From Squalus acanthias (Eukaryota): a stretch of DNA of 64,000 nt. Location: contig CM059431.1 in the NCBI GenBank assembly GCA_030390025.1, positions 129,768,001 to 129,832,000 of the forward strand, in the 5' to 3' direction. The number at the start of each line of letters is the position of its first letter. The stretch's first letter is position 1. Shown in pieces: positions 434 to 52,454 of the stretch. Both the position numbers and the translations under genes were made by a program. The notes under the pieces are model-generated. The model saw only the letters and a list, made by a program, of their open reading frames with translations. It made no database searches and was not told the DNA's origin.

Positions 434-1740
434 TGAGTGTCTCCGCTTCCATCACTTCCATCAGCAGCGAGTTCCAGGTCCTCACCACTCGCTGCGTAAA
501 AAGTTTTTCCTCACATCCCCCCTGTATCTCTTGCCCACAACCTTAAATCTGTGTCCCCTAGTCCTTGTACCATTAATTAGTGGGAACAGCCTTTCCCCGT
601 CTATCCTATCCAAACCCGTCATAATCTTGTACACCTCGATCAAATTACCCCTCAACCTCCTTTGCTCTAATGAAAACAAATCCAGCTTCTCCAACCTGTC
701 CTTGTAGCTAAGATCCCCCATCCCTGGAACCATTCTGGTAAATCTCCTCTGCACCCTCTCAAGGGCCTTCACATCCTTCCTAAAGTGTGGTGACCAGAAC
801 TGGATGCAATACTCCAGTTGTGGCCTAACCAGTGCTTTATAAAGGTTCAGCATAACTTCTCTACTTTTGTACTCAATACTTCTATTTATGAAGCCTAAGA
901 TCCCATATGATTTGCTAACCACTCTCTCAATATGTCCTGCCACCTTCAGGGACCTATGCGCATTAACTCCCAGGTCCCTCTGTCCCTGCACATTCTTTAA
1001 AACTGTGCCATTAAATGTATGTTGCTTCTCCCTGTTCCTTCTGCCAAAATGCATCATCTCACACTTCTCTGTATTAAATTCCATCTGCCACTTGTCTGCC
1101 CATTCTACTAGCCTTTCTATGTCCTGTTGCAGTCGATTGGTATCATCATCACTGTTTGCCACACCCCCAAGTGTGGTGTCATCGACAAATTTAGAAATTC
1201 TACTCTGTATTCCAATATCCAGGTCATTTATATATATCAAAAAAAGCAGTGGCCCCAGCACTGACACTTGGGGAACACCACTGTCTACCATCCTCCAGTC
1301 TGAAAAACAGATATTTACCACAACTTGCTGTTTTCTGTCCTTAAGCCAATTCCTTATCCAAGCTGCCACTGACCCACCTATTACATGAGCCTCAATTTTG
1401 TTAACCAGCCTTCTATGTGATACTTTGTCAAACGCCTTCCTAAAATCCATGTAGACAACATCCATTGCATTCCCTTCATCAATCCTCCCTGTTACTTCAT
1501 CAAAAAATTCAATTAGTTTAGTCAAACAGGATCTGACTTTTACAAATCCGTGTTGGCTCTCCTTAATTAGCTTAAACCTATCCAAGTGCCTGTTAACTTT
1601 TTCCTTGATTATTGTTTCTAAAACTTTACCCACCACTGATGTTAAACTGACCGGCCTATAGTTACTAGGATTGTCCGTACACCCTTTCTTGAACAATGAT
1701 GTCACATTTGCCACTTTCCAATCCTCAGGCACTCCCCCAC
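434..1740 (-). mobile_element. CR1 LINE fragment, reverse transcriptase region of ORF2
   Basis: ORF 482-1939 contains PEDWKVANVT, NYRPVSLTSVVGK, YMDFRKAFDKV, GVPQ.SVLGP, KFVDD, RPQLEYC; its first ~65 aa are read-through into unrelated sequence. Confidence 0.95.
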
Positions 1741-2964
1741 ATCTCGGGAAAAATGGAGTGAGCAAGAGCCTTTCCACGAGGCAAGTAATGAGGTGTAATG
1801 TTACTGTATTTTTGTGCTTTTCCCAGCTGTAAATGAATGAACTCGCCAATAGCCACTGAGCTTCCGCTTCCCCTTCACAGGCGAGGTACCCGACCTCCGT
1901 CAATCCCATGCTCCTGCAGTAAAACTCAAAAACTGGCATTTAATTCAATATTAAGGATCTCTCAACAAGAAGTTAATGATTTCAATGAAGTCGACCACCT
2001 CTACCGATCGGGTCCATGTCATGCCTTCAAAGCTGCTCGAGTTAAATGCGCGAGGGGGCGGGATGACGGCGGGTTCCCGAAGCGCTCGCTATTTCCGGGA
2101 TTTTTACTGCTGACCCGTCCCCAAACCCGCACACTCGGCAATGGGAAAATTCCGGCCAAGATTTTCTACAATGATCGCTTCATTGCAGCTGTCAAAACAT
2201 CTTGCTTGTTAAAATGTAGTGGACAAGTGTAAACTATGTAGCAATAAAATATTCACATGGCTGTCATGTGTAACAAAAATGGTCTCTGATAAATACCTGC
2301 ATTTCATCTTTCAAGAGGTTAAAATTTGCATAAACCTAAAACCTTTTGTCAGTGAATATAAAAGGAACTAAAATAATTCTAGAAGTTTACTTAACCAACC
2401 ATGTAAGCATGCACTTTTTTGTGAAACATTTCAATAAATGGTCCTGATTACACTCAGCCAAGATGGTGACATGATATTCTTTCAAATTTGTTTGCATTTA
2501 CCGACATGTTATCATTAGGCAGTTTTCTCAGGCTGGTGGCAAAAATTTATCAAAACAAATCACTAACAATAAGTACTAAGATTTCGCATCGTGCAATTGT
2601 AATTTTTAACTTAAGAACATAAGAAATATGAGCAGGAGTAGGCCATACGGCCCTTCGAGCCTGCTCCACCATTCAATAAAATGATGGCCGATGTTTGACC
2701 ACAACTCCACTTTCCCGCCCGATCCCCATATCCCTTGATTCCCTTAGAGTCCAAATATCTATCGATCTCAGCGTTGAATATACACAACTGAGCATCCACA
2801 GTCCTCTGGGGTAGAGAATTCCAAAGATTCACAACCCTCTGAGTGAAGAAATTTCGCCTCATCTCAGTGCTAAATGGCCGACCCCTTATCCTGAGACTGT
2901 GCCCCCTAGTTCTAAACTCTCCAGCCAAGGGAATCTACCCTGTCAAACCCTCTCAGAATCATAT

Positions 2965-3615
2965 GGGGGCAAAATTGGGTCGCACCCCCTTTGGGGTGCT
3001 AACTTCGCCGGGGTACTACTTTTAGCACCCCGAAAAAGTTAGCGCCCCCGCGCCTGAAATTCACTGGTAGCGCCCCAAGAGGGAGGCGGGGCACTACTGG
3101 AAGCGCTCCCCCTCCCTCTTGGGGCGCTGCAAGTGAATATCGTGGCGCTATGTGCCGCGGTACTGCAGGCCTTCCTCCCCTTATTAAAGGGGAGGGGCCT
3201 AGCACAGCGCGACCCAGGGCCCAGCTGGGTCACCAGGGATCGGAGTGCTGGCGGGGGGGGGGGGGCTGCACAAGAGGCTGGGGACGGCAACAGGGGCAGG
3301 TGCTGGCAGGCGGCCAGCAACAAAAATGGCCGCCCGGCACCTCCCCTTTAGTTTACGCTGCCCTGGCCGCAGGTAGGCCCCCCTGACCCTGTCGGATATA
3401 TCGTCTGGTGGTAAGTCAGTGGGCGCTACTGAAGATCGCGGCCGGGGCGCTGCGCATGGCGATGACGTCATCGCCGGAGGCACAGCGCCGCGGGGCGCTA
3501 ACGGTACCACCACCGCTAACCTCCCCCTGAATTTCGCGGGAGGCGTTCGCAGCACCGCACCCGGGCGCTAGTTGGTTTGCGTCCCGTTAGCGCAAATCAA
3601 CCAAATTTTTCCCCC
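2965..3615. mobile_element. Non-autonomous Harbinger-type MITE, 651 bp
   Basis: TIRs gggggcaaaatt / aatttttccccc; TSD TAT on both sides; many TAGCGCC/GGCGCTA subterminal motifs. Confidence 0.85.
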
Positions 3616-4002
3616 TATATGATTCAATGAGTTCACCCCTCATTCTTCTAAACTCCAGAGAGTATAGGCCCAATCTACTTAATCTCTCTTCATAGGACAA
3701 CCCTCTCATCCAAGGAATCAATCTAGTGAACCTTTGTTTCATCCCCTCTGAGGCAAGTATATACTTCCTTAGGTACAGAGACCAAAACTGTGCACAGTAT
3801 GCTAAGTGTGGTCTCACCAAAGCCCTGTACAATTGAGCAAGACATCCTGTACTCCAACCCCTTGCAATAAAGGCCAACATATAATTTGCCTTCCTAATTG
3901 CTTGCTGTACCTGCCTGTTCACTTTCTGTGTCTCGTGTACAAGGACACCCAAATCCCTCTGAACACCAACATTTAATCGTTTCTCACCATTTAAAAAATA
4001 TT

Positions 4003-11750: not shown

Positions 11751-12412
11751 CAAGTGAATGCAACCCCAATTCCCCATTCAACATTATTCCCACATCTAAC
11801 CTTTCCTCTGTTACTGACTATCACAGCATCATCTTGGTCACAATGCTGAAATAAAAGCCACCAGAAAGCAAACTTTCCAATCAAACTTTAACCATATATC
11901 CATCAATATTACAACAAAAATTCAATTAATCACCCTTGTGCATTCCCTTAGTGACTGTTTTGCATGTGCCTTTGCCTATTTTAGTGCTCCTACGTAGTGC
12001 TACCCCAGTGACTGCAGCATGGCTGGTGGAAGGCTGCTGACTTTCAGTGGGGGAGACTGGAGAACAGTGGCATAGTGGTAATGTCACTGGGCTAGTAATC
12101 CAGAGGCCTGGACTGATGATCAGAGACATGGGGCTGGATTTTGTTATTGGGGGTGGGTTGGGGGCGGGTCAGGTGGTCAGCGGGTCCCGCCCCCGCCTCC
12201 GATGTGAGGCAGGATAATTTAGCGATTTTGCCCTAATTGGGCACTTGATTTCCAGCGTGTGGGAACCCCTGGCCCAATTAGTCTTTTGGTCCTGAAACTC
12301 GCCTCTGATGACGTCATCTATGCAGTTGCATTTAAGGCCTGCAAGCAGCCTTGGTTCATTTTCTGCCTTACAATCTTTTTACTGAGACTTCTGAGGGATT
12401 AGTGGTGCAAAC

Positions 12413-14338
12413 ATGGTAAGCTCAAGGTCCAAGTCTGCACCCCGCTTTGATGGACTCCTCTGGTGGAGGGAGCAAGAGCTCATAAGGAAGTGCTGTTTCC
12501 TTCTGCTGGGAGGAAAAAACCTCCCCAGCAGACCAAAGCTGTGTGGCTGCAAGTGGCACAGGAGGTCAGTGCCATCTCAATGTGCAGCAGAACATGGCTG
12601 CAGTGCAGAAAGAGGTTTCATGACCTTCTCCGCACAGGAAAAGTGAGTATTCCATCACCATGACCCTCAATCTGTTCCCCATCGCCTCTCATCCCCAGCA
12701 CTCTGCATTGCCAACCTCCTCCTCCACATTCCACTTGACCCTTACATCCCTGCACCCTTAACCATTCCCTCTCTCTCTATGTACACATTCACTTAACTAT
12801 TCGACTATGCAGCCCTCGCACTCCCTATCACTGTTATGCTATGACAACAACTTACAACACACAGGGAGGGCCCTTGGTCTTGGGACCTCACTCCATCTTT
12901 GTGTCCTTCTAAGCATCGATGCTATGGATTCTCTACACTCACTGCTTCATTCTCACTCAAACTCCACTTGTGTCCCTCATTGCAGGAAAAGAGAGTCCAC
13001 AATAAGAGGGAAAGGGCAGAGACAGGAGGAGGGCCACCCTCAATAGCCCAGCTCACCAGCACAGAGGAGGCGGCCCTCGAGATCGTGCGAGTCAAGGAGG
13101 ATGCGCAAGTGGGGGACGGACAGACGGGCGCATCAGAGCAAGCTGATGACAGAATAGTTTTCCATCTCTCTATTTGACATTGCATGAGTGGCTGATATTG
13201 ATTCTGATGCTCTAACAGATTGACTTATGATCATCTGCACAATTCCATGTGCATGCAACGTTTATCTCACATGTCTAACTCTGTCCTTTACTCCCCTACA
13301 GGACCATCCACAGCCCCCCTCACCACTGTCCAGGAGGAACAGCCTGAGCCACAAGACTCCTCAGAGGAATCTGCAACCTCTGAGGGTGCAGCGTCACCAG
13401 AATTAAGCACACCCAGCACCAGCGCAGACACTCACACCTCGGTGGGACCTTCGGGACATAGAGTAGTGTTGTCACCTGGTGTATCACAGCTCACAAGTGA
13501 GCATCAGCAGATGGTGGAGACAGGGACAGCAGTGGAGAGTCCTCGTCGGAGGGCGCAGATCACTCCCAGTTGCATGTGGATCCAGAAAGAGAGCAGTGCT
13601 GGAACTCCAGGAACAGGTGCAGGAGTCTCTGGCAGGTTTTGGCTCCAGGGTCACTGCGAGTGTGGAGCGGATGGAGGAGTCCATCTCTAACATGAGCAGT
13701 GCCTTTGTGGAGGCAATGGCGCATGAATGCATCACCATGGAAAGGATGGCAACCTCCGTGGAAAGGATGGCTACGGTAGAGGAGAGGATGGCTACGGCCA
13801 TGGAGGAGCTAAGTCGCCAGAGTGTTGAAAACATGATCATTGTTCAGAATAGACTGACAGCTCTGGAGAACGATGGACAGCTATTGAGCAGAGAAACCAG
13901 AGCTTCATGGAAGTCCTCTGGAGTAGGACTGCCAGTGCAGAAACGGGTCCTCATGGCCCCCCTGAAGTGCAGCAAGGTGCTGTCAAGCCACTTGCTAGCT
14001 CTGAAGTGGGCCTGACCCATGAGAGGGATGTTGGTGGCAGACAACAAGGAAGTGGGGGCTCCTCTTCAAGCACTCACACTTCCATGCCACTGCACAGCCC
14101 TCAGTCAGAGCCCCACCACAGTCCTCACCCAACTGAGATGGGCGTCTCATCCCCTGCACAGCCGCAGGAGCAGCAGACTGTTGGCGAGCCCTCACAGGCT
14201 CGCAACCCCAGAGGACGCCGGCCAAAGGTGTCGAGGCAGGAGCAGCATGAAAGTGAGCAAGGGGCCTCCACATCTGCTGAAGCCACAGGGGAAGTACCAC
14301 GTAGGAGCATGCGTAAGAGGAAGATAAAGCACAAGTAG
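12413..14338 (+). pseudogene. Three-exon Myb/SANT gene of H3 (exons ~12413-12642, 12986-~13144, 13302-14338)
   Basis: APRF..WLQVAQEV..RTWLQCRKRFHDL|gtgagt; tgcag|EKRVHNKRERAETGGG; ctacag acceptor; basic C-terminus; frameshifts present. Confidence 0.85.
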
Positions 14339-14596
14339 TCACAAGGGTAGTCACTTGGGTGTTCTGTTGTGTTTAATTGTGAAATGCCATCCGTGAATTA
14401 ATGTTATAAAATTACTTGATGGCAAACTGTTGAAGTTGTGGGCTGTGTCATTTCGCAAATGGGACTTCCACATTGAGGGCTCAGGGTGACTTGGAATTGT
14501 CAGTATGGTGGTCAGAGTGATAGGAAGCCGTAGGTTCTTGTCCATTGTCGATGGTGTGGTAAGAAGGTGAGAACCAAATGTGTTTGATTGGGCAGC

Positions 14597-15846
14597 CTAA
14601 GCAAATCTGGCCAAGATCAGTGCATCCCTTGCATCTTGGGCAGCAATGTTCTCGCGTGCTGCTGCCGCTGGTTGATGCACCTCCGCAAGCTCTTCGTTCT
14701 CGCTCTCCTCCTCCTCCTCCTTCTCATCCTCATCTGAGGAGGCTATGCGATGAGCCACTTGTACCGCAGGCAGCTGCAAGCCACGATGCTGTGCGCTGTT
14801 GTGAAGTGCACAGCAGATCACGACGATTCTGGAGACCCCGGCTGCTGAGTACTGCAGGGCTCCACCTGATCTATCAAGGCATCTGAATCGCAACTTCAGC
14901 AAGCCGATGGTTTGCTCGATAATGGATCTGGTGGAAATGTGGCTGGAGTTGTAGCGCTCCTCAGCTTCGTTGGATGGCCTCCTCAATGGCGTCATTAGCC
15001 ACGTCTTCAGGTGATAGCCCTTGTCTCCAAGTAGCCATCCGCAAAGTTGGTCTGGCGGACTGAAGAGCGGAGGCACACTAGACTGCCGCAGGATGAAAGA
15101 GTCATGGCAACTGCCAGGGTATTGGCGCAAACATGCAAAATTTCCTTACTGTGGTTACACACCAGCTGCACGTTGAGGGAGTGGAAGCCCTTGCGGTTGA
15201 CAAAAGTACCTGGATTGTGATGGGGTGCCTTAAGGGCCACATGTGTGCAGTCAACGACACCTTGCACCCTTGGAAAGCCTGCCAGATTAGCAAATCCAAC
15301 CGCACGCGCGGTTACACTTGCTTGACCCTTGGAGAAGTTGATGTAATTGTGCACGTTGGCAAAGAGGGCATCGGTTACCTGCGTGATGCAAGTGTGTGCG
15401 GCCGCCTGGGAGATGCCGTTGATGTCTGCTGTTGATCCCTGGAATGAGCCTGAAGCAAAAAAGTTGAGTACGGTGGTGACTTTCACGGCCACTGGTAAGG
15501 GGTGTCCACCCGCTCCAATGGGCTCCAGGTCTTGCTGCAGCATTGCGCAGATGTCACCCACTACCTCTCGCGAAAGTCTGAGCCTCCTCTGGCGCTGCTG
15601 CTCAGTCATGTTGAGGTAGCTCATCCTCTGTCTGTAAACCGTGTTTTGGGGGTATCTCCTGCGGCGATGTCCTTCGCTGCGCTGCCGCCTTCTGGCCTGT
15701 GCAGCTTCAGGTGGGTGAGCAGCAGGTTGGCGCTCCTGTTGTTGCTCCTGCTGTTGGTGCTGCTGTTGTTCCAGGTTCTGCTGCTGCTGCGGCTGGTCTT
15801 CATCCGAATCTGAGGTCCAGGAGAAAGGGAAATAAATGGTTCCCAT
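14597..15846 (-). pseudogene. Harbinger DDE transposase of H3, single frameshift near 15125
   Basis: Overlapping ORFs 15007-15846 and 14597-15130 give [38 protein letters not shown]. Confidence 0.95.
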
Positions 15847-17504
15847 GCTGCAGGTATATACCTCAGTTGAGGAAGCGCTCAGTTAAGGTGGGGAGAGGGG
15901 TTTCCCAGGAGGTCACAGTAGAGATAGATCTCAGCTTCAAAACTTGCAAAATCAGTAGGCATGCAAAAAGTTCTCCCAGACCTGAGAAAAGAAAGTTCTG
16001 CCAACTGCAAATGATCATTATGCAAAACTCCGTTTTTATGGTGGAGCTGCAGCTGTTAGTAAGCCATCCATTTGTGAACCCTACAGGATTAACTGGCGTA
16101 TTCCAGGGGAGCCGAGCAGCATGAGGGAATGTAGGAAACTCTGAAAGGCCTCTCAAAATGGCATTATAGAGGCACGTAAGTGGTTGTTAAGTGCTTTAAG
16201 GGCCTATCCCGCCTCTTGGAGGCGGGACCGAAACAGGGTCTGAAAGCCCGCATTTGGGAAAGTTGCTCAGAGGCGGGTTGGAGGCGGGATCGGCGGCCCG
16301 ACCCCATTTTTGGCAACTTTCCCACCTGACCCGCCTTCAAACTCGCCTCCTCGGGCCTGGCAAAATCCAGCCCATGAAGTTCAAATCCCATCACGGCAGC
16401 TGGGGAATTTAAATTCAGTTAATTAAATAAATCTGGAATTTAAAAAAAGCTAGTATCAGTAATCGTAACCATGAAACTATCGGATTGTCGTAAAAACCCA
16501 TTTGGTTCACTGATGTCCTTTAGGGAAGGAAATCTGCCGTCCTTACCTGGTCTGGCTGATATGTGACTCCAGACCCACAGCAATGTAGTTGACTCTTAAC
16601 TGCCCTCTGAAATGGCCTAGCAAGCCACTCAGTTGTAACAAACCGCTACGAAACAAAATAGTAAGAATGAAACCGGCATCGACCTCAGCACCGGCTACGG
16701 ACACAGCAACGGTATACCCAGCCCAGTCAACCCTTGCAAAGTCCTCTGCACCAACATCTGGGGATTTGTGCCAAAATTGGGAGAGCTGTCCCACAGACTA
16801 GTCAAGCAACAGCCAGATATACTCATACTCACAGAATCATACCTTTCATCCAATGTCCCAAACACCTCCATCACCATTCCTGCGTATGTCCTGTCCCACC
16901 GGCAGGACAGACCCACCAGGGGTGGCGGCACAGTCGGGAAGGAGTGGCCCTGGGAGTCCTCAACGTTGACTCTGGACTCCATGAAGTCTCATGGCTTCAG
17001 GTCAAGCATGGGCAAGGAAACCTCCTGTTGATTACCACCTACCGCCCTCCCTCAGCTGATGAATCAGTGCTCCTCCATATTGAACACCACTTGGAAGAAG
17101 CACTGAGAGTAGCAAGGGCACAGAATGTACTCTGGGTGGGAGACTTCAATGTTCATCACCAAGAGTGGCTCGGTAGCACCACTACTGACCGAGCTGGCCG
17201 AGTCCTGAAGGACATAGCTGCCAGTCTGGGCCTGCGACAGGTGGTGAGAGAACTAACACGAGGGAAAAACCTACTTGACCTCGTCCTCACCAATCTACCT
17301 GTCGCAGATGCATCTGTCCATGACAGTATTGGTAGCAGTGACCACCGCACAGTCATTGTGGAGACGAAGTCCTGTCTTCACACTGAGGACATCCTCCATC
17401 GTGTTGTGTGGCACTACCACCATGCTAAATGGGATAGATTCAGAACAGATTGAGCATCTCAAATCTGGGCATCCATGAGGCGCTGTGGGCCATCAGCAGC
17501 AGCA

Positions 17505-18818
17505 TACGAACATACGAATTAGGAGCAGAAGTAGGCCACTCAGCCCTTCGAGCCTGCTCCACCATTCAATAAGATCATGGCTGATCCAATTACTCCACAT
17601 TCCCGCCTACCCCCGATAACCTTTCACCCCCTTGCTTACCAAGAATCTATCTACCTCTGCCTTAAAAATATTCAAAGACTCTGCTTCCACCGCCCTCTGA
17701 GGAAGAGAGTTCCAAAGACTCACGACCCTCCTCATCTCAGTGTTAAATGGGCGACCCCTATTTTTAAACAGGTGTCCAAAAGCTTGGTGGAAGGTGGGTT
17801 TTGAGGAGCATCTTGGAGAGTGAGGCCAAGAAGTTTAGGGAGGGAATTAATCCTATCTCATTGCACAATACCAGGTCTAGTATAGCCTGCTCTCTGGTTG
17901 GCTCCAGAACATGCTGTTGTAAGAAACTATCCCGAAAACATTCCATGAACTCCTCATCTATGCTACCTTTGCCCATCTGATTTTTCCAGTCTATATACAG
18001 ATTAAAATCCCCCATGATTATCGCCGAACCCTTCTGACAAGCTCCCATTATTTCTTCCTTTATACACGATCCTACCATGTGGTTACTGTTAGGGGGCCTG
18101 TACACCACTCCCACAAGTGACTTCTTGCCTTTATTATTTCTCATCTCTACCCAAACTATTTCTACATCCTGGTTTCCTGAACTTAGGTCATCCCTCTCTA
18201 TTGTGCTAATACCATCATTAATTAACAGAGCCACCCCTCCACTTTTTCCCACCTTCCTGTCCTTCCTAAATGTCATGCACCCTTCAATATTCAGGTCCCA
18301 ATCTATGTCATCCTGTAGCCATGTTTCTGTAATGGCTATCAGATCATATTTCTTTATTTCTATTTTCGCTATCAGTTCATCTGTTTTGTTTCGCATGCTA
18401 CGTGCATTCAGATGCAGAGCCTTTAGTTTTGTCCTTTTATTATTTTTGTAACCTCTAGCCTTATCTGTCGATTTATTCTTAGATTTGTACTCTCTATCTC
18501 TTCCTGTCACGGTCTGTTTATCATTTCCCATATTAATACCTTTCTCTATTGCCTTGTCTCTAATCTTTGAATTACCACATCTTCCCAAATTTGATCCCAT
18601 GCCCCCAATATTTAGTTGAAAGCCCTCTCTACCGCCCTAGTTATACGACTTGCTAGAACACTGGTCCCAGCATGGTTCAGGTGAAGACCGTCCCAACGAT
18701 ACAGATCCCACTTTCCCCAGTACTGGTGCCAGTGCACCAGGAATTGAAACCCATTTCTCCCACACCAGTCTTTGAGCCACGCTTTCATCACTCTAATTTT
18801 ATTTACCCTATGCCAATT
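17505..18818 (-). mobile_element. Rearranged CR1 insertion: ORF1 esterase end + ORF2 endonuclease, ~75-bp L2-tail filler, CR1 3' tail
   Basis: WDGLHLNHAG (SGNH-type ORF1); NARSMRNK..ITETWL..YRPP..GDFN..LDL; duplicated AGCA at both ends. Confidence 0.85.
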
Positions 18819-21019
18819 AGCAGAATTGTATTCAACCACAATCTGTAACCTCATGGCCCGGCATAACCCTCACTCTACCATTACCATCAAGCCAGGGGAC
18901 CAACCCTGGTTCAATGAGGAGTGTAGAAGAGCATGTCAGGAGCAGCACCAGGCGTACCTAAAAATGAGGTGCCAACCTGGGGAAGCCGCAACACAGGACT
19001 ACATGCATGCTAAAAAGCGGAAGCAGCATGCTATAGACAGGGCAAAGCGATCCCACAATCAACGGATCAGATCAAAGCTCTGCAGTCCTGCCACATCCAA
19101 TCATGAATGATGGTGGACCATTAAACAACTAACGGGAGGAGGAGGCTCCATGAATATCCCCATCCTCAATGATGGTGGAGCCCAGCACGTGAGTGCAAAA
19201 GACAAGGCTGAAGCATTTGCAACCATCTTCAGCCAGAATTGCCGAGTGGATGATCCATATCGGCCTCCACCTGAGGTCCCCACCATCACAGAAGCCAGTC
19301 TTCAGCCAATTCGATTCACTCCACGTGATATCAAGAAACAGCTGAGTGCACTGGATACAGCAAAGGCTATGGGCCCCGACAACATCCCGACTGTCGTGCT
19401 GAAGACTTGTGCTCCAGAACTAGCCGCACCTCTAGCCAAGCTGTTCCAGTACAGATACAACACTGGCATCTATCCGACAATGTGCAAAACTGCCCAGGTA
19501 TGTCCTGTCCACAAAATGCAGGACAAATCCAATCCAGCCAATTACTGCCTCATCAGCCTACTCTCAATCATCAGCAAAGTGATGGAATGTGTCATCGACA
19601 GTGCTATCAAGCGGCACTTACTCACCAATAACCTGCTCACTGATGCTCAGTTTGGGTTCTGCCAAGACCACTCAGCTCCAGACCTCATTACAGCCTTGGT
19701 CCAAACATGGACAAAGGAGCTGAATTCCAGAGGTGAGGTGAGAGTGACTGCCCTTGACATCAAGGCAGCATTTGACCGAGTGTGGCATGAAGGAGCCCTC
19801 GTAAAACTGAAGTCAATGGGAATCAGGGGGGGAAAACTCTCCACTAGCTGGAGTCATACCTAGCACAAAGGAAGATGGTTGTGGTGATTGAAGGTCAATC
19901 ATCACAGCCCCAGGACATCGCTGCAGGCGTTCCTCAGGGCAGTGTCCTAGGCACAAACATCTTCAGCTGCTTCATCAATGACCTTCCCTCCAACATAAGG
20001 TCAGAAATGGGGATGTTTGCTGATGACTGCACAGTGTTCAGTGCCATTCATAACTCCTCAGATAATGAAGCAGTCCATGCCCGCATGCAACAAGACCTGG
20101 ACGATGTTCAGGCTTGGGCTGATAAGTGGCAGATCACATTCGCGCCACAGAAGTGCCAGGTAATGACTATCTCCAACAAGCGAGAGTCTAACCACCGCCC
20201 CTTGACATTGAACGGCATTACCATCGCCGAATCCCCCACCGTCAACATCCTGGGGGTCACCATTGACCAGAAACTTAACTGGACCAGCCACAAATACTGT
20301 GGCAACAAGAGCAGGTCAGAGGCTAGGTATTCTGTGGCGAGTGTCTCACCTCCTGACTCCACAAAGCCTTTCCACCATCTACAAGGCACAAGTAAGGAGT
20401 GTGATGGAATACTCACCACTTGCCTGGATGAGTGCAGCTCCAACAACACTCAAGAAGCTCGACACCATCCAGGACAAAGCAGCCCGCTTGATTGGCACCC
20501 CATCTACCACCTTAAACATTCAGTCCCTCCACCACCGGCGTACCGTGGCTGCAGTGTATACCATCTACAAGATGCGCTGCAGCAACTCGCCAAGGCTTCT
20601 TCGGCAGCACCTCCCAAACCCGCAAACTCTTCCACCTTGAAGCACAAGGGCAGCAGGCGCATGGGAACACCACCACCTCCAAGTTCCCCTCCAAGTCACA
20701 CACCATCCTGACTTAGAAGTATATTGCCGATCCTTCATCGTCTCTTGTCAAAATCCTGGAACTCCCTACCTAACAGCATTGTGAGAGTACCTTCACCACA
20801 CGGACTGCAACGGTTCAAGAAGGCGGCTCACCACCACCTTCTCAAGGGCAATTAGGGATTTGCAATAAATGCTGGCTTTGCCAGCAATGCCCACATCCCA
20901 TAAACGAATTAAAAAAAAGACTGCAGATGGCCTTGCAGGATGACCTCAAGGAGCTCTGGGCCTAGGAGGCCCAGCTTTGGACTGCACCACCTCAGTATGG
21001 GCAGCAGCAGTCTGGGCTG

Positions 21020-21117
21020 TAAACAGAAAATGCTGGAAATATTCTGCAGGTCAGGCAGCATCTGTGGAGCGATAAACAGCATTAACGTTTCAGGTCGATG
21101 ACCTTTCATCAGAACTG
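21020..21117 (-). mobile_element. 98-bp Penelope-type terminal-repeat insertion carrying a minimal hammerhead ribozyme
   Basis: 13-bp TSD gcagtctgg(g/c)ctg; minus strand CTGATGA-A-AGGTC(atc)GACCT-GAAACGTT. Confidence 0.7.
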
Positions 21118-34439: not shown

Positions 34440-35230
34440 AAAAAATTCTCTGGATCTGGGTGTCACTGCCAAGGCTGGCATTTATTGCGCATCCCTAGTT
34501 GCCTTGAGAAGGTGGTGTTGAGCCTTCATCTTAAACCGCTGTAGTCTGCATAGTGTAGGTGCTCCCAAAATACTTAGAGGTAAGGAGGGCCAAGACTTTG
34601 ACTCAGCGACAATGAAGGAACAGCCACACATGTCCATGTCAGGATGGTGTATGACTTGGAGGGGAACTTGGAGGTGATAGTGCTCCCATGCATCTACTGC
34701 CCTTGTCCTTCTAGGTGGTGGAGGGTTAGGAGGTGCTACTGAAGAAGCTTTGGCGAGTTGCTGCAGTGCACCCTGTAGATAGTACATACCGTCGCCACGG
34801 TATGCTGATGGTGGAGGGATGGATGTTTAAGCCAGTGGATGGTGTGCAATCAAGCAAACTATTTTGTCCTGGGTAGTGTCGAACTACTTGAGGGTTGTTG
34901 GAGCTGAACAATTCCAGGCAAGTGGAGAGTATTCTATCACACTCCTGACATGCCTTGTAGGCGATAGAGAAACTTTGGAGTAAGTGCTGCTTGATAGCAC
35001 TGTTTACAAATCCTTCCATCACTTTGCTGATGATTGAGAATGGGCTGATGGGGCAGTAATTGGCTGGTTTGAAGTTGTCCTGCATTTTGTGGACAGGACA
35101 TGCCTGAGCAATATTCCGCATTGTCAATGTTGTAGCTCTACTGGAACAGTTCAGCTAAGGATGCAATTAGTTCTGGAGCACAGGTTCTCAGTACTGCAGT
35201 CAAGATATTGTTGGGGCGCGTAGCCTTTGC
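34440..35230 (-). mobile_element. Old deleted copy of the 12060-20917 LINE family
   Basis: ANYCPIS..IISKVMEG peptide and the same 3' tail. Confidence 0.8.
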
Positions 35231-35469
35231 TGTGTCCAGTGTACTCAGATGGGAGGAAGCACATTGTAGCAATTATATTCCAATGTTTTCTCTTGTATTG
35301 CTTTAGTTATTCTTTGATGGAATATTCTAGAGTGTCTGGAAATAAAAGCAGCTAGCTATTAGCAGACCAATTTGAGCACTTATTTGGACGAAACAGGATA
35401 ATCAGGTACTGGCTGTCATGCATTTCCATCTATTAAAGTACTTCCAACACCAGTAGAAAATTTGGTGGG

Positions 35470-35670: not shown

Positions 35671-38600
35671 GGGCTAGAAGATCGCATTGCAGGATCAACC
35701 CGCGCCCATTCAAAGTAATGCAGGCAGCACACTAACTTCGTGCTGCCTGCTGATTAACTTGATTGTGGCATTCAGCCCAGCGATGCTGAGTGGCTGATCG
35801 CTCAGCAGGGGGCCAAGTTCGTGCAAGGCTAGCACCAATTAAAGCTAGCCTGCACTTCTTACAGGCAATCTGCACCGCTTAAAGGGGAGGTGCATTCTGC
35901 CTGCAGCAGGTCATTCATCTGGCTGGGGAACAGAGTCAGAGCAGCAAAAAAACCTGCTGATGTCACAACAGGAGAGAGAGTTTGCTCCAAGGTTCTCCGA
36001 TGTAGCCCTGGAGGCTTGGTGCAGGAGGTGAACACGAGGAGAGTCGTCCTGTTTCGACAGGGGGCCAGGAGGCCCTCCAGGCAAATTTGGATAAGGCAAT
36101 GGGAGCAGATAGCCGTCGCGATGAATGCCAGCAGTGTGGCCCCTAGGACCTGGACACAGTGCAGGAAGAAGTTTAATGACTTCACATGAGTGGTCAAGGT
36201 AAGTGAATTTATCTTCAAATGCCATCTCCCACCATCTGCACCACTAGCCTCACACACTGCTCAATGCACCGCACCCACATCACTCACCGACCAACAATCT
36301 CTACCAAACACGACTCATACACTTACAACTGCTGCAAGCTTCAAACCCACAACTCACAGCTTGCACACACTGTCAGCTATTCAACCATGACAGGCATATC
36401 ACACAAACAAATTGCATCACACTCACTGACACACTTCCCTTTCTCATGCAGGACAAAGTGGCTCACAACGGGCACCAGCAGAACCTAACTGGTGGGGGAC
36501 AGGTGTGCCTGCAACCCCTGACCCCGATGGAGTAGACGGTGCTGGCCATTATTGGGAGGGCCATCGCTGAGCCCATGACCAGCGGCCAGGCTGAAAAAAT
36601 ACAAAATGCCAGTATCCTCATATGTAATCCTCCATCTCACATCCCACTTCCCCCTAATCCCACAATCTCTTCTAATTTACAAGCTGCACATAATGTAAGC
36701 ATGCACCTCTTGCTTTTCCCCCACTCCCCTTACCATTGTGCCTTTCTCCTTTCAGATAGCCAAGAACTGCACCTGACCAGGCACTGGTGGAGGAGCACAA
36801 AATTGAAGAGCACCAAAATACTGATGATGAAGACACAGCACCGATTTCACACTCGCAGCCACCAGCTCAGATACTGACAATCCGTGTACTTTAGAGGATA
36901 GCTTAGATGTGAGATCCGCATGTTGTGAGACACTGGGCATGAGTGGCCTGCATCCCAGGCAGGGTGAAAGGGTAGTGCAGGTGCCAGCTCCACGGAGGGC
37001 AAGGTCGCATACAGGTTCTGCTACAGAGGACTCAGATGAGCACTTCGATGGGGCGGCCTACAGAAGAACGCTGATGGATATGCACAATGAAATGCTTGGT
37101 GCATTGGCAGGCCTGCCAGAAAGCCTGATCACAATGTCAAGGAGCATGGAGGAGTCCGACACCAACCTTGCACAGGGCTTTGCGCAGAGCTTGGAGCCCA
37201 TGATTTCTAGCATGGAAGTGATGGGCAACTCATTAGCACACTTGTGGACCCAAATATGATGGTCGACGTCTCAGCTTCCATTGCAGCACAAGCAGAAGTC
37301 ACCCAAAGTCTGAGTGCTGCAGTGGAAGCTCAGAATTCTGTCACGCAAGCTCAAACTGCTCTCATGCAGGCTCAGCTTGCTGCCACGCAAGCTCAGACTG
37401 CTGCCATTATGGCTGTGTTTACCAGTGTTGAAAGGGGCTTGCAGGGTGTCACAGCAGTCCAGCAATCTGTTCTCCAACAGATTACTAGGATTGCTGAGGC
37501 GTCGCCCCAAGGGAGTGGTAGTGGCTCCATGGAGCACAAACCTGCTGTCCTCTCTCAGGATGGAAACATTCGTCCTCCCACCACTGCCACTCTGCCAGTG
37601 CCTTTGCTGTTGCCTGTCAGCCAGCCAGCCCAGACTGAAGTCATCCTTGCCGAGGTGGTGCAGTCTAAAGCCGGACCTTCTAGGCCCAGAGCTGCTCAAG
37701 GTCGTCCTGCAAGGCCATCTGCAGTCTCCCCCACTGAAAGTCAGCAGCCTTCCACCAGCCATGCTGCAGCCATTGGCGTAGCACTTCGTAGGAGCATTAG
37801 GACAGGCAAAGGCAAATGGAAGACTGACACTAAGGGAACGCACAAGGGTGATTAGTTGACCTTATTATGTAATATTGGATGGATTGATGTATATAGTAGG
37901 TTTGGAATGTTTCTGTTGTGGTGGCTTTTATTTCAGCTGTTGTGGCCAAGAGGATGCTGTGAGCGTCAGCAACAGATGGAAGGTAAGGTGTGGGACTATT
38001 GTTGAATGGGGAATTGGGGTTACGTTCACTGGTACCACAGTTGGATGAGTCGATCTCGGACAGCTCGGGCAGAAAGGGGCTCTCTGGGTTGCCTCCTCCT
38101 CTTCTGCTTCCTCCTCCTCCTCGTCTTCCTCCTCTTCCTCAGCTGGCTGCCGCCTGGTGGCAAGGGCTGTGCCCTCATGATTGCGAGGTTGTGGAGCATG
38201 CAGCAGACCACGACGAATCCTGAGACGCACTCTGGTGAGTACTGCAGGGCTCCTCCAGAGCGGTCTAGGCAGTGGAAGCGTTGTTTAAGGATGCCAATGG
38301 TCCGCTCTATCAGATTCCATGTGGCAGCATGGCTTTCGTTATATGCATGCTGCCTACGTGTGCTTGGGTTGTGCAGCAGAGTCATGAGCCAGATGGTCAG
38401 CGGATAGCCCTTGTCGCCCAGTAACCATCCTCTGGTTTGTCATGATGGCTCAAAGACTGAGGCACCAGCAGGCTGGTGCAGAATAAAAGCATCACGACTG
38501 CTGCCAGGATACCGGGCATTCACCATCATGATGTGCTGAGCATGGTCGCACATTCAGCAAGCGGTAACCTTTGCGGTTGCGTTACATCTCAGCATTTAGA

Positions 38601-48242: not shown

Positions 48243-50611
48243 GTCTGGGCCTGCGACTGGTGGTGAGAGAACCAACATGAGGGAAAAACCTACTTGACCT
48301 CGTCCTCATCAATCTACCTGTCGCAGATGCATCTGTCCATGACAGCATTGGTAGCAGTGACCACCACACAGTCCTTGTGGAGACGAAGTCCCGTCTTCAC
48401 ACTGAGGACACCCTTCATCGTGTTGTGTGGCACTAACACCGTGCTAAATGGGATAGATTCAGAACAGATCTAGCAGCTCAAAACTGGACATACATGAGGT
48501 GCTGTGGGCCATCAGCAGCAGCAGAATTGTACTCCACCACAATCTGTAACCTCATGGCCCGGCATATCCCTCACTCTACCATTACCATCAAGCCAGGGGA
48601 CCAACCCTGGTTCAATAAAGAGTGTAGAAGAGCATGCCAGGAGCAGCACCAGGCATACCTAAAAATGAGGTGCCAACCTGGGGAAGCTATAACACAGGAC
48701 TACATGCATACTACAAAGTGGAAGCAGCATGCTATAGACAGAGCTAAGCGATCCCACAATCAACGGAGCAAATCAAAGCTCTGCAGTCCTGCCACATCCA
48801 GTCGTGAATGGTGGTGGACCATTAAACAAATAACGGGAGGGGAAGGCTCCATGAATATCCCCATCCTCAATGATGGTGGAGCCCAGCACGTGAGTGCAAA
48901 AGACAAGGCTGAAGCGTTTGCAACCATCTTCAGCCAGAAGTGCCGAGCGGACGATCCATATTGGCCTACTCCTGAGATCCCCACCATCACAGAAGCCAGT
49001 CTTCAGCCAATTCGATTCACTCCATGTGATATCAAGAAATGGTTCAGCGCACTGGATACAGCAAAGGCTATGGGCCCCAACAACATTCCGGCTCTCGTGC
49101 TGAAGACTCGTGCACCATAACTAGCCGCACCTCCAGCCAAGCTGTTCCAGTACAGCTACAACACTGCCATCTATCCGACAATCTGGAAAACTGCCCAAGT
49201 ATGTCCTGTCCACAAAAAGCAGGACAAATCCAATCCGGACAATTACCGCCCCATCAGTCTACTCTCAATCATCAGCAAAGTGATGGAAGGTGTCATCGAC
49301 AGTGCTATCAAGCGGCACTTACTCACCAATAACCTGCTCACTGATGCCCAGTTTGGGTTCCGCCAGGACCACTCGGCTCCAGACCTCATTACAGTCTTGG
49401 TCCAAACATGGACAAAGGAGCTGAATTCCAGAGGTGAGGTGAGACTGAGTGCCCTTGCAATCAAGGCAGCATTTGACCGAATGTGGCATCAAGGAACCCT
49501 AGTAAAAGTGAACTCAATGGGAATCGGGGGGGGGGAGGTGGGGGAACGTCTCCACTGGCTGGAGTCATACCTAGCACAAAGGAAGATGGTTGTGGTGGTT
49601 GAAGATCAATCATCACAGCCCCAGGACATCGTTGCAGGAGTTCCTCAGGGCAGTGTCCTAGGCCCAACCATCTTCAGCTGCTTCATCAATGACCTTCCCT
49701 CCAAAATAAGGTCAGAAAAGGGGATGTTCGCTGATGACTGCACAGTGTTCAGTGCCATTCGCAACTCCTCAGATAATGAAGCAGTCCATGCCCGCATGCA
49801 ACAAGACCTGAAAGACATTCAGGCTTGGGCTGATAAGTGGCAGGTAACATTCGCACCACACAAGTGTCAGGCAATGACTATCTCCAACAAGCAAGAGTCT
49901 AAACACCGCCCCTTGACATTGAACGGCTTTACCATCGCCGAATCCCCCACCATCAACATCCTGGGGGTTACCATTGACCAGAGACTTAACTGGACCAGCC
50001 ACATAAATACTGTAGCAACAAGAGCAGGTCACCTCCTGACTCCCCAAAGCCTTTCCACCATCTACAAAGCACAAGTAAGGAGTGTGGACCAAGTAAGGAA
50101 TACTCTCCACTTGCCTGGATGAGTGCAGCTCCAACAACACTCAAGAAGCTCGACACTATCCAGGACAAAGCAGCCCACTTGATTGGCACCCCATCCACCA
50201 CCTTAAACATTCACTCCCTTCACCACCGGTGTACTGTGGCCGCAGTGTGTACCATCTACAAGATGCACTGCAGCAACTTGCCAAGTCTTCTTCGGCAGCA
50301 CCTCCCAAACCCGTGACCTCTACCACCTAGAAGGACAAGGGCAGTAGGCGCATGGGAACACCACCACCTCCAAGTTCCCCTCCAAGTCACACACCATCCT
50401 GACTTGGAAGTATATCACCGTTCCTTCATCGTCGCCGGGTCAAAATCCTGGAACTCCCTCCCTAACAGCAGTGTGGGAGTACCTTCACCACACGGACTGC
50501 AGCGATTCAAGAAGGCGGCTGACCACCACCTTCTCAAGGGCAATTAGGGATGGGCAATAAATGCTGGACTTGCCAGCGACGCCCACATCCCACGAATGAA
50601 TATAAAAAAAA
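48243..50611 (+). mobile_element. 5'-truncated copy of the 12060-20917 LINE family
   Basis: Colinear with 17224-17504 plus 18823-20917; RT motifs; same stem-loop and A tail. Confidence 0.92.
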
Positions 50612-52454
50612 GTTTTAATTTTTTGCCCCAGCACTAATACTGGCGCCAATGGGTTTCCCAGTGGTAATCCCCACTTTGAGATTATTGGAAGAAATAGGAG
50701 GATCAGCAAAGAGATGCCAAGCTGCAAGATGCCTTACTCCAACCACGACAACAGGATTTGCCATTACCATGTGAAATAGCCTGTGTGACCTGTGGATGAA
50801 CTACAGTGCACCACCAACTTTGTGCCGAGTCTGTAGCTCCTGAATGAGGTTTTTTTTTAATTATTCGTTCCTGGCATGTGATCATCGCTGACCAGGCCAG
50901 CATATATTGCCCATCCCTAATTGTCCTTGAGAAGGTGGTGGTGTGACGCAGAACTGCATCCCTGACATGTCAGACACTCCTGTGTAGCTGGGAACATACT
51001 CCCTGAAAAAAACATTTTTTGTAAATTCATGAAGTGAAATATGAACTTTCATTCTGACTTTCCCCAAACCCTTGCTAGCTGTACCTCTTGCAATCCCCCT
51101 TGCCTTATATCATCCAGCTCAAATAGTCAAAAATCTGAAAACATGACACCCGCTCTCCGACTCGCTCTCCATACCCTTTAATATTCTTCTTTTGCAAGGA
51201 ATTATCTAATTCCCTTTTTTTTTTAAATAATGGAATATGATTCAATAAGGGGCCTAGATTTGCTGGAAGGGTGTGTTAGGCAGCGCACGCCATTATTTGG
51301 ACTTTACAGCTCCTTGTTCATATCGATCTATATTTACACCATTATTTTCTGGAACGTCAATCCATCTATGGCGTGGCAAGGTCTTTGGCAAATCAGGGAC
51401 CTCGTGGACGGCATAGCCAATGGATTATCCTGCAGACCAACCACATGGCATTATAAATAGCTGGGAACAGACACCATTGGGCAGATTGAGGCACTGGGGG
51501 GTAAATGAGCTGCAACTTCTGAAATCAACCTAAATCAACTTTAAAAAGATAATTAAGGTTAAGGTTGAGTGTCTATGGGAATGGCTGCTGGGAATGCCAA
51601 GGGTGAGGGCTCCCCACGAGATCAACCAGGTGGTGTGGAGGGAGGTGGCGAAGGCACTCAGCGCCACATCAGTCATGCCACATCAGTCATGCCACATTCA
51701 AGTGACCAGTGTAGGAAGAAGTACAATGACCTGACCTAACCAGGTCAGGCAAGGTAAACATTCTCAGAGCTTCAATTCAGAACTCACCATTTCATTATAA
51801 GTATTAGAAAAACAAAAATTGTCAGTCACTTTAATTGTTTTTTAAAGAATTGCTTGAGCTGTAAAGAATTTGCCCTTGTAATCTACTATTTGCAGAGTGG
51901 GGGAAGTTCAGGTGCTTCCTGTTTGTTTGTTTGATTGGTCAAGGCAGAATCCAAAGCGAAGTGAGTTATAAAAGTCTGTTGGCGTGGGAGACAGTCCTTT
52001 CAGAGTGGCCATTTCATGGATTTGACAGCTTCTGTCTCTGTCGAAGAAAATATTTCAATATCTTATAAAAAGCCTGTCAAATCAAAACCTCTACCTCACA
52101 CAAAGCAACCCATCTAACCCTTTCCTTGTTTTTATCCCGCAGGGCAAGTTGGCACATAACATGTGTGAGTGTGCAGAGAATAGTGGAGAAGTCACCTTTT
52201 TGAATTATTTCACACAAGACGAGGAGAGGGCCCTGCAACTGCAGGGATACTAAGGTGACACAGATCCACAAGGAGACGAGGGCAGAGTGCACTGAGGCAG
52301 AGACTGAGCGTGGAGGAGGAGGAGATACACAGCATGCTATCTGAGTCCAGCATGTTGGGGGATCAGAGAACATTGGGAAGGGGGGAAGCTGCACCCCATG
52401 AGGTGGAGTCTACGACAGGCTCAGCGAGAGGATAACTAGGAGCAGGATTACAGG

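Follow-up and report, generated by a model that had tools for sequence, protein, structure and literature searches.

In the analysed stretch of 64,000 nucleotides (the window), positions 12060-20917 represent one insertion located between two copies of AGACTG on the plus strand (12054-12059 on the left, 20918-20923 on the right), which constitute the target-site duplication (TSD). An intact empty site exists in the paralogous copy, which reads GGGGGAGACTGCAGATGG at 37715-37732 on the minus strand, with homology of about 40 nt on either side. The AGACTG at both ends and the empty paralogous site confirm the single TSD-flanked insertion proposed in the preliminary description of this DNA, and all the features listed there were found at their positions or no more than 3 nt away.

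Two nested insertions that are not part of the LINE interrupt this copy. A PIF/Harbinger DNA transposon at 12131-16373 has terminal inverted repeats and a 3-bp duplication, ATG; its DDE_Tnp_4 domain is encoded by minus-strand ORFs at 14597-15130 and 15007-15846. The other insertion (17505-18818, minus strand) is a LINE-like fragment in the opposite orientation with a 4-bp duplication, AGCA, and a weak similarity to endonucleases at 17866-18189 on the minus strand. The presence of two nested elements had been recognised earlier, and it is their limits that are corrected here. After both are excised, the element has a size of about 3.3 kb, as had been estimated. A second copy of the same LINE family, truncated at the 5′ end, is located at 48243-50611 on the plus strand and corresponds to element positions 937-3314.

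The 5′ part of the head (12060-12130, plus strand) includes the element start, the A box, an anticodon-like arm and a long variable region. The A box TGGCATAGTGG is located at 12068-12078, the element starting 8 nt before it, and the anticodon-like loop is CTAGTAA (AGT). The remainder of the 5′ UTR (16374-16666, plus strand) contains the B box/T-arm, with the B box GTTCAAATCC at 16379-16388, and a conserved non-coding body, which may be Deu-like. A non-coding body of about 350 nt had been described; it is indeed conserved and non-coding, and extends for about 270 nt beyond the B box. As a whole, the 5′ UTR has a length of about 357-362 nt, with nine upstream ATGs in it. When 24 copies are aligned, conservation rises from 0.2-0.4 to at least 0.9 precisely at GGGAATGG; the copies begin at one fixed nucleotide, with box A 8 nt downstream. 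The consensus A box TAGCGTAGTGG occupies positions 9-19, and the consensus B box GAGTTCAAATCC approximately positions 72-83. A small-RNA-derived head with these two boxes, here about 52 nt apart, is a characteristic of SINEs.

ARAGORN detected no tRNA genes in the window or in 12 uninterrupted copies. The Rfam tRNA model matched the uninterrupted copy L038 with 21.7 bits (gathering score 29; E = 0.079); the match covers model positions 7-64, that is, the D, anticodon and T arms, and the acceptor stem is outside it. With nothing from ARAGORN, an Rfam score below the gathering score and no acceptor stem, the head was rejected as a tRNA gene.

The coding region is a single ORF of about 963 codons (about 2.9 kb) encoding an AP-endonuclease and a reverse transcriptase (RT). 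Its start (ATG at 16667) and most of the AP-endonuclease domain are located at 16667-17504 on the plus strand, where the ORF is broken; the remainder (18819-20855, plus strand) encodes the end of the endonuclease, RVT_1 and a C-terminal domain and terminates with TAG at 20853-20855. Several frame changes break the reading of this copy, and the ORF is intact in none of the 19 full-length copies examined. The domain matches are Exo_endo_phos_2 (7.7e-14) and RVT_1 (9e-40; 9.3e-40), and the RT matches the structures of L1 ORF2p and R2. An AP-endonuclease followed by RT within one ORF is the arrangement of APE-type LINEs; other LINE features are the 6-bp TSD of the insertion at 12060-20917, with its empty site, and the existence of 5′-truncated copies. 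A runs terminate every copy examined. SINEs are short (about 100-700 bp) and non-coding; in this respect the 3.2-3.3 kb element differs from them, and only its deletion derivatives resemble them. A SINE-type tRNA-derived head does form the 5′ terminus of an element encoding endonuclease and RT, as the preliminary description had claimed, and the full-length members show no ORF1, also in agreement with it. The closest protein relatives are found on contigs of 3.2-3.9 kb, likewise without room for ORF1; thus, the lack of ORF1 is not unusual in itself.

A two-tier hairpin and AATAAA (20864-20869) are found in the 3′ UTR (20856-20917, plus strand), which terminates in GAAT(T)n(A)n; the A run is at 20911-20918. 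The inner stem-loop at 20870-20886 has a 7-bp stem and a 3-nt loop. The two-tier hairpin was predicted in 17 tails (-14.7 kcal/mol), and compensatory change was found in none of 15 pairs.

The head-endonuclease junction, which the preliminary description had proposed to count, turned out to be family-wide rather than unique to this locus. Of 12256 first-look candidates, 40 genomic matches were scored, and every one of them spans the junction from the B box through the body to the endonuclease. The head is contiguous with the body at 22 of 29 non-self loci; the other seven are 5′-truncated at scattered element positions (about 35-120) and are preceded by unrelated sequence rather than by an alternative 5′ UTR. 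Head-to-tail copies with a span of 3211-3315 bp account for 13 of the 20 fetched, and the best 10 matches to the 340-nt 5′ UTR all run on into the endonuclease region. The order head, body, ORF, tail is the same in every full-length copy examined. Exact patterns linking the head to the ORF start were found genome-wide in at least 872 copies (825 + 47), and reversed controls gave none. The same junctions were found in assembled contigs of four runs from two organisms; such contigs, also those of three possibly-RNA runs, show neither starts nor strands. A word index, which does not show junctions, contains at least 44% of the sampled words of the element in 17 runs from six organisms. Two observations that would have spoken against the initial reading, a junction unique to the locus and full-length members with another 5′ UTR or an ORF1, were looked for, and neither was made. 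The head-body-ORF-tail pattern is far beyond chance, and the insertion at 12060-20917 is a decayed member of an abundant family of single-ORF non-LTR retrotransposons of about 3.3 kb. No A/B-box head was found among 80 more distant metagenomic relatives, so it is not a trait of the whole clade.

Short SINE-like forms of about 400 bp, consisting of the 5′ UTR and the last ~110 nt, are joined at many different deletion junctions. A search for the body joined to the tail within 30-130 nt gave 1926 exact matches with many different junctions, and none in the controls. Six such copies were fetched: two are complete and consist of LINE positions 1-300/338 and 3169/3207 to about 3305, and the other four have the same build and are 5′-truncated or interrupted. 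In assembled contigs of other runs, the joints are between 699-745 and 3591-3650. Given the variety of deletion junctions, the LINE is the parent of the short forms; the earlier suggestion that it gave rise to SINE-like forms sharing both its ends is supported by these derivatives. By definition, they are tRNA-headed SINEs, and they probably belong to the SacSINE1/Deu-SINE family.

The head variants GGTAATGTCACTGG and GGTTATGTTACTGG occur in a ratio of 825:47 when linked to the ORF start, versus 19:151 when linked to a SINE deletion junction, the latter ratio covering one SINE junction type. The LINE- and SINE-linked heads are thus separate lineages, and the head is inherited together with the ORF; a LINE-type head may also be present in other SINE subfamilies, since the SINE side of the comparison is of one junction type. 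Head-bearing copies show a divergence of 1-10%, which indicates that the head was retained while the family was active over a long time. The fixed start, the co-segregation with the ORF and the lack of an alternative 5′ end show that the head belongs to the replicating RNA. Ancestral recombination between a SINE and a LINE is a possible origin of the family.

UnaL2 of eel and ZfL2-2 of zebrafish are ORF1-less "stringent" LINEs of the L2 clade, and their partner SINEs share the tail. Like the element described here, they are about 3.3-3.6 kb long with a single ORF for endonuclease and RT, and their conserved 3′ stem-loop, a proposed recognition site of RT, may have its counterpart in the hairpin predicted here. 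Short tandem repeats form their 3′ ends, in contrast to the GAAT(T)n(A)n of the present family. To our knowledge, their 5′ UTRs have not been reported as tRNA-derived, unlike the one found here.

SacSINE1 and other Deu-SINEs of cartilaginous fishes are described in PMC5499810 as having a tRNA-related head, a Deu domain and a tail in common with L2-2_CM. Like them, the present family combines a tRNA-related A/B-box head with a conserved body and a 3′ tail of LINE type, and it has a high copy number in a shark-like genome; by description, the ~400 bp derivatives have exactly their build. Unlike them, the full-length element contains a 2.9 kb ORF for endonuclease and RT between the body and the tail; in that paper, the partner LINE is drawn with only the tail in common. 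Single-ORF LINEs with "bipartite" derivatives that retain both ends are known from ingi/RIME and L1Tc/NARTc of trypanosomes, RTE and Vingi (PMC5786205, PMC1874656), and the family resembles these systems. According to these papers, such derivatives arise by internal deletion and the 5′ end carries the element's own promoter; what the two forms have in common at the 5′ end is a promoter for Pol II and/or an HDV-like ribozyme, and a tRNA head, if any, occurs on the short derivative only and is thought to have been added later. Here, by contrast, the full-length coding element bears the tRNA-derived head. In Kojima 2018, only RTE and Vingi 5′ regions are reported in SINE bodies. TRIMp3 elements (Cassandra, Helenus, Ajax) are, according to PMC10886601, LTR retrotransposons whose Pol III promoters derive from 5S RNA or tRNA; they share with the present family a terminal small-RNA-derived sequence of the Pol III promoter type in a retrotransposon that is not a classical SINE. 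However, TRIMp3 elements are non-coding, shorter than 1.3 kb and of LTR type, whereas the element described here is 3.3 kb long and encodes its own endonuclease and RT. No report of a comparable LINE was found in the literature searched, Repbase and Dfam being outside its scope.

On the sense strand, internal runs of four or more T (T4+) are absent from 15 of 18 full-length copies. The remaining three contain four such runs in total at four different positions, from which it follows that the ancestor had none. The lack of a T4+ terminator between the promoter and the 3′ end, as in a Pol III unit, is statistically weak: a dinucleotide shuffle, which keeps the general TT depletion, gives an expectation of 1.64 (P = 0.17, not significant), and a synonymous-codon shuffle gives 1.49 (P = 0.19). 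In 17 related LINE ORFs, 5-38 T4+ runs each were counted (observed/expected median 1.16, minimum 0.40), and other LINE fragments within the window have 8, 4 and 1 T4 runs in 0.8-1.3 kb. The 5.67 kb of the LINE family in the window contains no T4 runs, versus 5.3 per kb in the rest, and has 25 A4+ runs.

Judged from these sequence features, Pol III transcription of the family is plausible but unproven. Source copies would be transcribed by RNA polymerase III from nucleotide 1, the head providing an internal type-2 promoter, and the polymerase would read through all 3.3 kb, which is possible because the sense strand has no T4 terminator. The RNA would be translated inefficiently in a cap-independent manner, or the protein may be supplied in trans from other transcripts. 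Target-primed reverse transcription, with RT presumably recognising the 3′ hairpin, would insert the copies into new sites. Internal deletions of the ORF have occurred repeatedly and given rise to the derivatives of about 400 bp. The whole explanation, a tRNA-headed LINE family with source copies transcribed in this way, seems to us about evenly balanced between right and wrong. The more specific reading, that an autonomous, Pol III-transcribed and T4-free LINE lineage of sharks has Deu-type SINEs as its ORF-deleted offspring and that their body is the LINE 5′ UTR, is put forward tentatively.

Pol III RNA is uncapped and poorly translated, which counts against Pol III transcription, as does the AATAAA close to the 3′ end, as in Pol II mRNAs. 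The length of 3.3 kb, far above that of typical Pol III products, also counts against it, and one author considers SINE length to be limited by Pol III processivity (PMC10886601). Moreover, with no intact ORF among the full-length copies examined, present activity and autonomy are hypothetical. The same architecture may instead be transcribed by RNA polymerase II, from a promoter in the 5′ UTR body or by read-through from a host gene; the head would then be a passenger or have a role in cis (RNA stability, RNP assembly, localisation) and would serve as a Pol III promoter in the short derivatives only. In PMC10886601 and PMC5786205, every LINE studied so far is described as Pol II-transcribed; besides, a protein of about 963 aa must be translated from the RNA, and the T4 depletion is not significant when dinucleotides are preserved. 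However, the fixed 5′ end coincides with the start expected from a type-2 Pol III promoter, the T4 runs abundant in the related ORFs and nearby sequence are absent from the 3.3 kb, and the nine upstream ATGs argue against ordinary cap-dependent scanning. We regard transcription by Pol II as quite possible, though short of probable.

Another explanation is that the true LINE RNA is head-less and that RT switches to a SINE RNA within the shared body, re-adding the head at each retrotransposition, so that the head-bearing LINE itself is no source element. Template switching is the accepted route to SINE/LINE chimeras according to PMC5499810 and PMC5786205, and about 300 nt of 5′ sequence are common to the LINE and the SINE, where a homologous switch would be scarless. 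Nevertheless, the LINE-linked heads are distinct from those of the SINE subfamily tested, no head-less full-length class was seen, the seven of 29 loci without a complete head being truncated, and the head was kept through the whole range of divergence among copies, which makes this explanation improbable. As for a one-off SINE-LINE template-switch chimera, the alternative named in the preliminary description, or an assembly artefact restricted to 12060-20917, the same junctions at hundreds of loci on many contigs, as well as in the four runs of two organisms, refute the former and leave practically no likelihood to either.

Textbooks and recent specialist papers (PMC10886601, PMC5786205) keep the two classes apart: LINEs are coding and transcribed by Pol II, and SINEs are short, non-coding and transcribed by Pol III, their tRNA heads having been added onto fragments of LINEs. 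In the present family, a coding LINE of full length has a SINE head and body as its heritable 5′ end, and SINEs arise from it by simple deletion of the ORF, which reverses the usually assumed direction of SINE birth and points to a concrete origin of a conserved SINE body, an origin that has been called enigmatic. If the more specific reading given above is true, the SINE "body" would be a functional LINE 5′ UTR, serving, for example, cap-independent translation or RNP assembly. The finding also opens to testing the precise question of whether an autonomous retrotransposon can be driven by Pol III. Even without the involvement of Pol III, this is a clear case of a LINE and a SINE as one continuous family.

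A GDSL esterase domain was found in four of ten upstream ORF1s of metagenomic relatives, and this domain is typical of the ORF1 of CR1/L2 elements. L2-2_CM is named as the partner LINE of SacSINE1 in PMC5499810. These ORF1s of relatives and the SacSINE1 partner are indirect signs that the family probably belongs to the CR1/L2-like group of LINEs.

The LINE at positions 12060–20917 of the window arrived as a single insertion, as the preliminary description had proposed. The AGACTG duplication is present at 12054–12059 and 20918–20923, and the paralogous empty site is real (GGGGGAGACTGCAGATGG at 37715–37732, minus strand, flanked on either side by ~40 nt of homologous sequence). Without its two younger nested insertions, the element is about 3.3 kb long. 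The other features ascribed to it were also recovered. The A box TGGCATAGTGG is located at 12068–12078, 8 nt past the element start at 12060; the anticodon-like loop of the head is CTAGTAA; and the B box GTTCAAATCC at 16379–16388 is followed by endonuclease and reverse transcriptase (RT) coding sequence. The 3′ end contains AATAAA (20864–20869), a 7-bp stem with a 3-nt loop (20870–20886) and an A run (20911–20918). Frame changes disrupt the ORF in this copy. A second, 5′-truncated copy of the family lies within the window at 48243–50611. A close paralogue of the host sequence cut by the LINE (11900–12059 and 20918–21100) lies 17 kb from it in the opposite orientation (37500–37860). This host sequence, described earlier as a Myb exon, could itself represent the second gene of a further Harbinger copy.

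The structural interpretation of the element as a tRNA-headed LINE is supported family-wide. A 1024-nt query that starts at the B box and reaches into the endonuclease was searched against the same genome (3.7 Gb vertebrate assembly). It returned 12256 first-look candidates, and all 40 scored matches cross the junction at 87–93% identity. The junction is not unique to the window locus and is found throughout the family, which refutes a one-off chimera at this locus. According to BLAST, the head directly adjoins the body, i.e., the non-coding stretch preceding the ORF, in 22 of 29 non-self loci. The remaining seven are simply 5′-truncated, beginning at element positions ~35–120 with unrelated DNA upstream, where neither an alternative 5′ UTR nor an ORF1 was seen. 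Complete head-to-tail copies of 3211–3315 bp were found at 13 of the 20 loci fetched with wider flanks, and with a 340-nt 5′ UTR query, each of the best 10 of 40 scored matches continues into the endonuclease. When 24 copies are aligned together with 12 nt of flank, conservation per column rises from 0.2–0.4 to at least 0.9 exactly at GGGAATGG; thus, a single fixed 5′ end is shared by the family. One full-length copy, L028/L048 (G000:C1:157538199-157542599), carries a second copy of the head inside its endonuclease region, which reflects either the nesting of one family member in another or a rearrangement.

The head occupies positions 1 to ~100 of the family, with the A box TAGCGTAGTGG at 9–19 and the B box GAGTTCAAATCC at ~72–83 in the 24-copy alignment. 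Against the Rfam tRNA model, the D, anticodon (AGU) and T arms can be aligned, and the variable region holds 22 nt of inserted sequence; the acceptor stem is missing, and at 21.7 bits (E = 0.079) the match falls below the gathering score of 29. ARAGORN detected no tRNA genes in the window or in 12 uninterrupted copies. The head was accordingly rejected as a tRNA gene, and the partial Rfam match indicates that it is tRNA-derived and similar to the heads of SINEs. It is followed by a body of ~260 nt of conserved non-coding sequence, which may resemble the Deu domain of SacSINE1-type SINEs. In L038, an uninterrupted full-length copy, the ORF starts with an ATG at element position 358 and ends with a stop at ~3248 (~963 codons); the 5′ UTR (L038 404–760) is 357 nt long and contains nine upstream ATGs. 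An A/T-rich block directly follows the head in the 24-copy alignment, and the last 5′ UTR bases before the ORF differ among SINE subfamilies. The ORF contains the Pfam domains Exo_endo_phos_2 and RVT_1, and the RT matches the L1 ORF2p and R2 structures. The last ~65 nt are predicted to fold as a two-tier hairpin, for which covariation support is absent among 17 aligned 3′ ends. The terminus is GAAT(T)n(A)n, with 0–5 T followed by 5–9 A in 17 copies; this variable T run just before the terminal A run is the only recurrent place in the family for runs of at least four T (T4+).

Shortened derivatives of the family also exist. When contigs from other sequencing runs (three possibly-RNA runs and one DNA run) are compared with a full copy, they contain joints of element positions ~296–342 to ~3188–3247; these contigs provide depth profiles and joints only. 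In the genome, a body motif is followed by a tail motif within 30–130 nt in 1926 exact-pattern matches (controls, 0). Among the matches listed, the deletion junctions are diverse, with varying amounts of the 5′ UTR end and the last codons kept. Two complete derivatives among the six fetched are ~400 bp long and consist of LINE positions 1–300/338 joined to 3169/3207 to ~3305; the other four have the same build and are 5′-truncated or interrupted. By definition, these ~400 bp derivatives count as tRNA-headed SINEs. The many different junctions joining the LINE 5′ UTR to the LINE tail fit repeated internal deletion of the ORF from a head-bearing LINE, and they thereby support the earlier suggestion that the LINE is the parent of a SINE. 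A LINE with deletion-derived short partners is reminiscent of ingi/RIME, from which the shark LINE is distinguished by its SINE-type head.

Repeated re-addition of heads by template switching onto SINE RNA is argued against by two head variants, GGTAATGTCACTGG and GGTTATGTTACTGG, which differ at two positions. Exact two-motif matches linking the head to the ORF start number 825 for GGTAATGTCACTGG and 47 for GGTTATGTTACTGG genome-wide (reversed controls, 0), whereas those linked to one common SINE deletion junction number 19 and 151, respectively (controls, 0), with the reservation that related copies are not independent events and that a single SINE junction type was compared. By subfamily, LINE heads form a lineage of their own. 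Over their first 400 nt, head-bearing copies also diverge from the majority by 1–10%, which likewise speaks against recurrent switching and supports head-bearing RNAs as the probable source molecules.

Whether Pol III drives the LINE from this head is about evenly balanced; such drive is plausible and unproven. The A and B boxes have consensus sequence and spacing, and the fixed 5′ end is where a promoter of this kind would begin transcription. Internal T4+ runs on the sense strand, which act as Pol III terminators, are missing from 15 of 18 full-length copies. The other three have four such runs at four different positions, so the ancestor had none; the same copies contain 10–16 A runs, 7–12 C runs and 7–11 G runs. 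By comparison, the ORFs of related LINEs (n = 17) have 5–38 T4+ runs (observed/expected median 1.16, minimum 0.40), three other LINE fragments in the window have 8, 4 and 1, and the density is 5.3 per kb in the rest of the window versus 0 in 5.67 kb of the LINE family. The nine upstream ATGs also count in favor. However, TT is generally depleted in the LINE; the number of T4 runs expected is 1.64 after dinucleotide-preserving shuffling (P = 0.17) and 1.49 after shuffling of synonymous codons (P = 0.19). Since the shuffles alone are not significant, the absence of T4 runs is used only alongside the comparison with related and neighboring LINEs. Pol III drive is further opposed by a length far above that of usual Pol III products, by the AATAAA near the 3′ end, and by the poor translation of uncapped RNA.

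Judged by coding capacity, the family was autonomous. The longest open frames in fetched copies are 819–874 aa, and frames of up to 986 aa occur among 74 scored RT matches of the genome search, for which stops are also reported; an intact ORF was found in none of the 19 full-length copies examined. The LINE copies examined have no ORF1, in agreement with the preliminary description. The nearest database proteins (at most 46% identity, 930–980 aa) lie on contigs of 3.2–3.9 kb, and therefore these relatives have no room for an ORF1 either. Of 22 complete metagenomic relatives inspected for upstream ORFs, 10 possess one (163–331 aa), which in 4 cases carries a GDSL esterase domain. This domain is typical of CR1/L2-type ORF1. 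These ORF1s, together with the SacSINE1 partner L2-2_CM, named as an L2 LINE by Luchetti (2017; PMC5499810), place the family provisionally in the CR1/L2-like group. Protein Atlas matches are generic RT clusters only. Of the words sampled from a full copy, at least 44% recur in 17 sequencing runs from six organisms; hence, the family is common to several close relatives. A regular-expression search found no A/B-box head upstream of the ORF in 80 more distant metagenomic relatives, the sole match being a chance one within an ORF. The Rfam tRNA model at the gathering threshold gave no matches on 20 full-length metagenomic loci, and since the family's own head is also below this threshold, the absence of the head in metagenomic relatives is a regular-expression result. 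Given these 80 relatives, the head looks like an acquisition of the shark LINE's lineage.

Kojima (2018; PMC5786205) found that, of LINE 5′ regions, those of RTE and Vingi alone contribute to SINE bodies; the paper states that nothing similar to conserved SINE bodies has been found, and it assumes that bipartite LINEs are Pol II-transcribed, with heads as later additions. Kojima (2024; PMC10886601) likewise assigns non-LTR retrotransposons to Pol II and SINEs to Pol III, and Luchetti (2017; PMC5499810) shows an L2 partner of SacSINE1 that shares only the tail. No description of a LINE with a tRNA-derived head was found in a literature search that had Repbase, Dfam, subscription journals and the PMC5499810 supplements outside its range. 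A SINE-type head on a coding LINE is of high interest to transposon biology.

One of the nested insertions in the window copy, at 12131–16373, is a PIF/Harbinger DNA transposon that splits the tRNA-like head, separating its variable region from the B box. It has the terminal inverted repeats GGGCTGGATTTTG/CAAAATCCAGCCC, and its 3-bp duplication is ATG. Its ORFs matching DDE_Tnp_4 are encoded on the minus strand; the plus strand carries a second gene that looks multi-exonic. The right end (16354–16376) resembles the LINE variable-arm sequence (GGCCTGG.CAAA.ATCCAG), so the BLAST match to the LINE runs 23 nt into the Harbinger; the resemblance is probably due to chance. The second insertion (17505–18818, minus strand, 4-bp duplication AGCA) shows no more than weak similarity to an endonuclease (26% over 112 aa), ~360 nt from its presumptive 3′ end. 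This layout is odd for a LINE, and therefore it may be an internally deleted element. Three further LINE remnants, all on the minus strand, are an element with an unrelated RT (32% identity) at 623–1738, an older relative of the LINE family (~78% DNA identity) at 34452–35248, and a tail-only fragment of 98 nt at 50852–50949.
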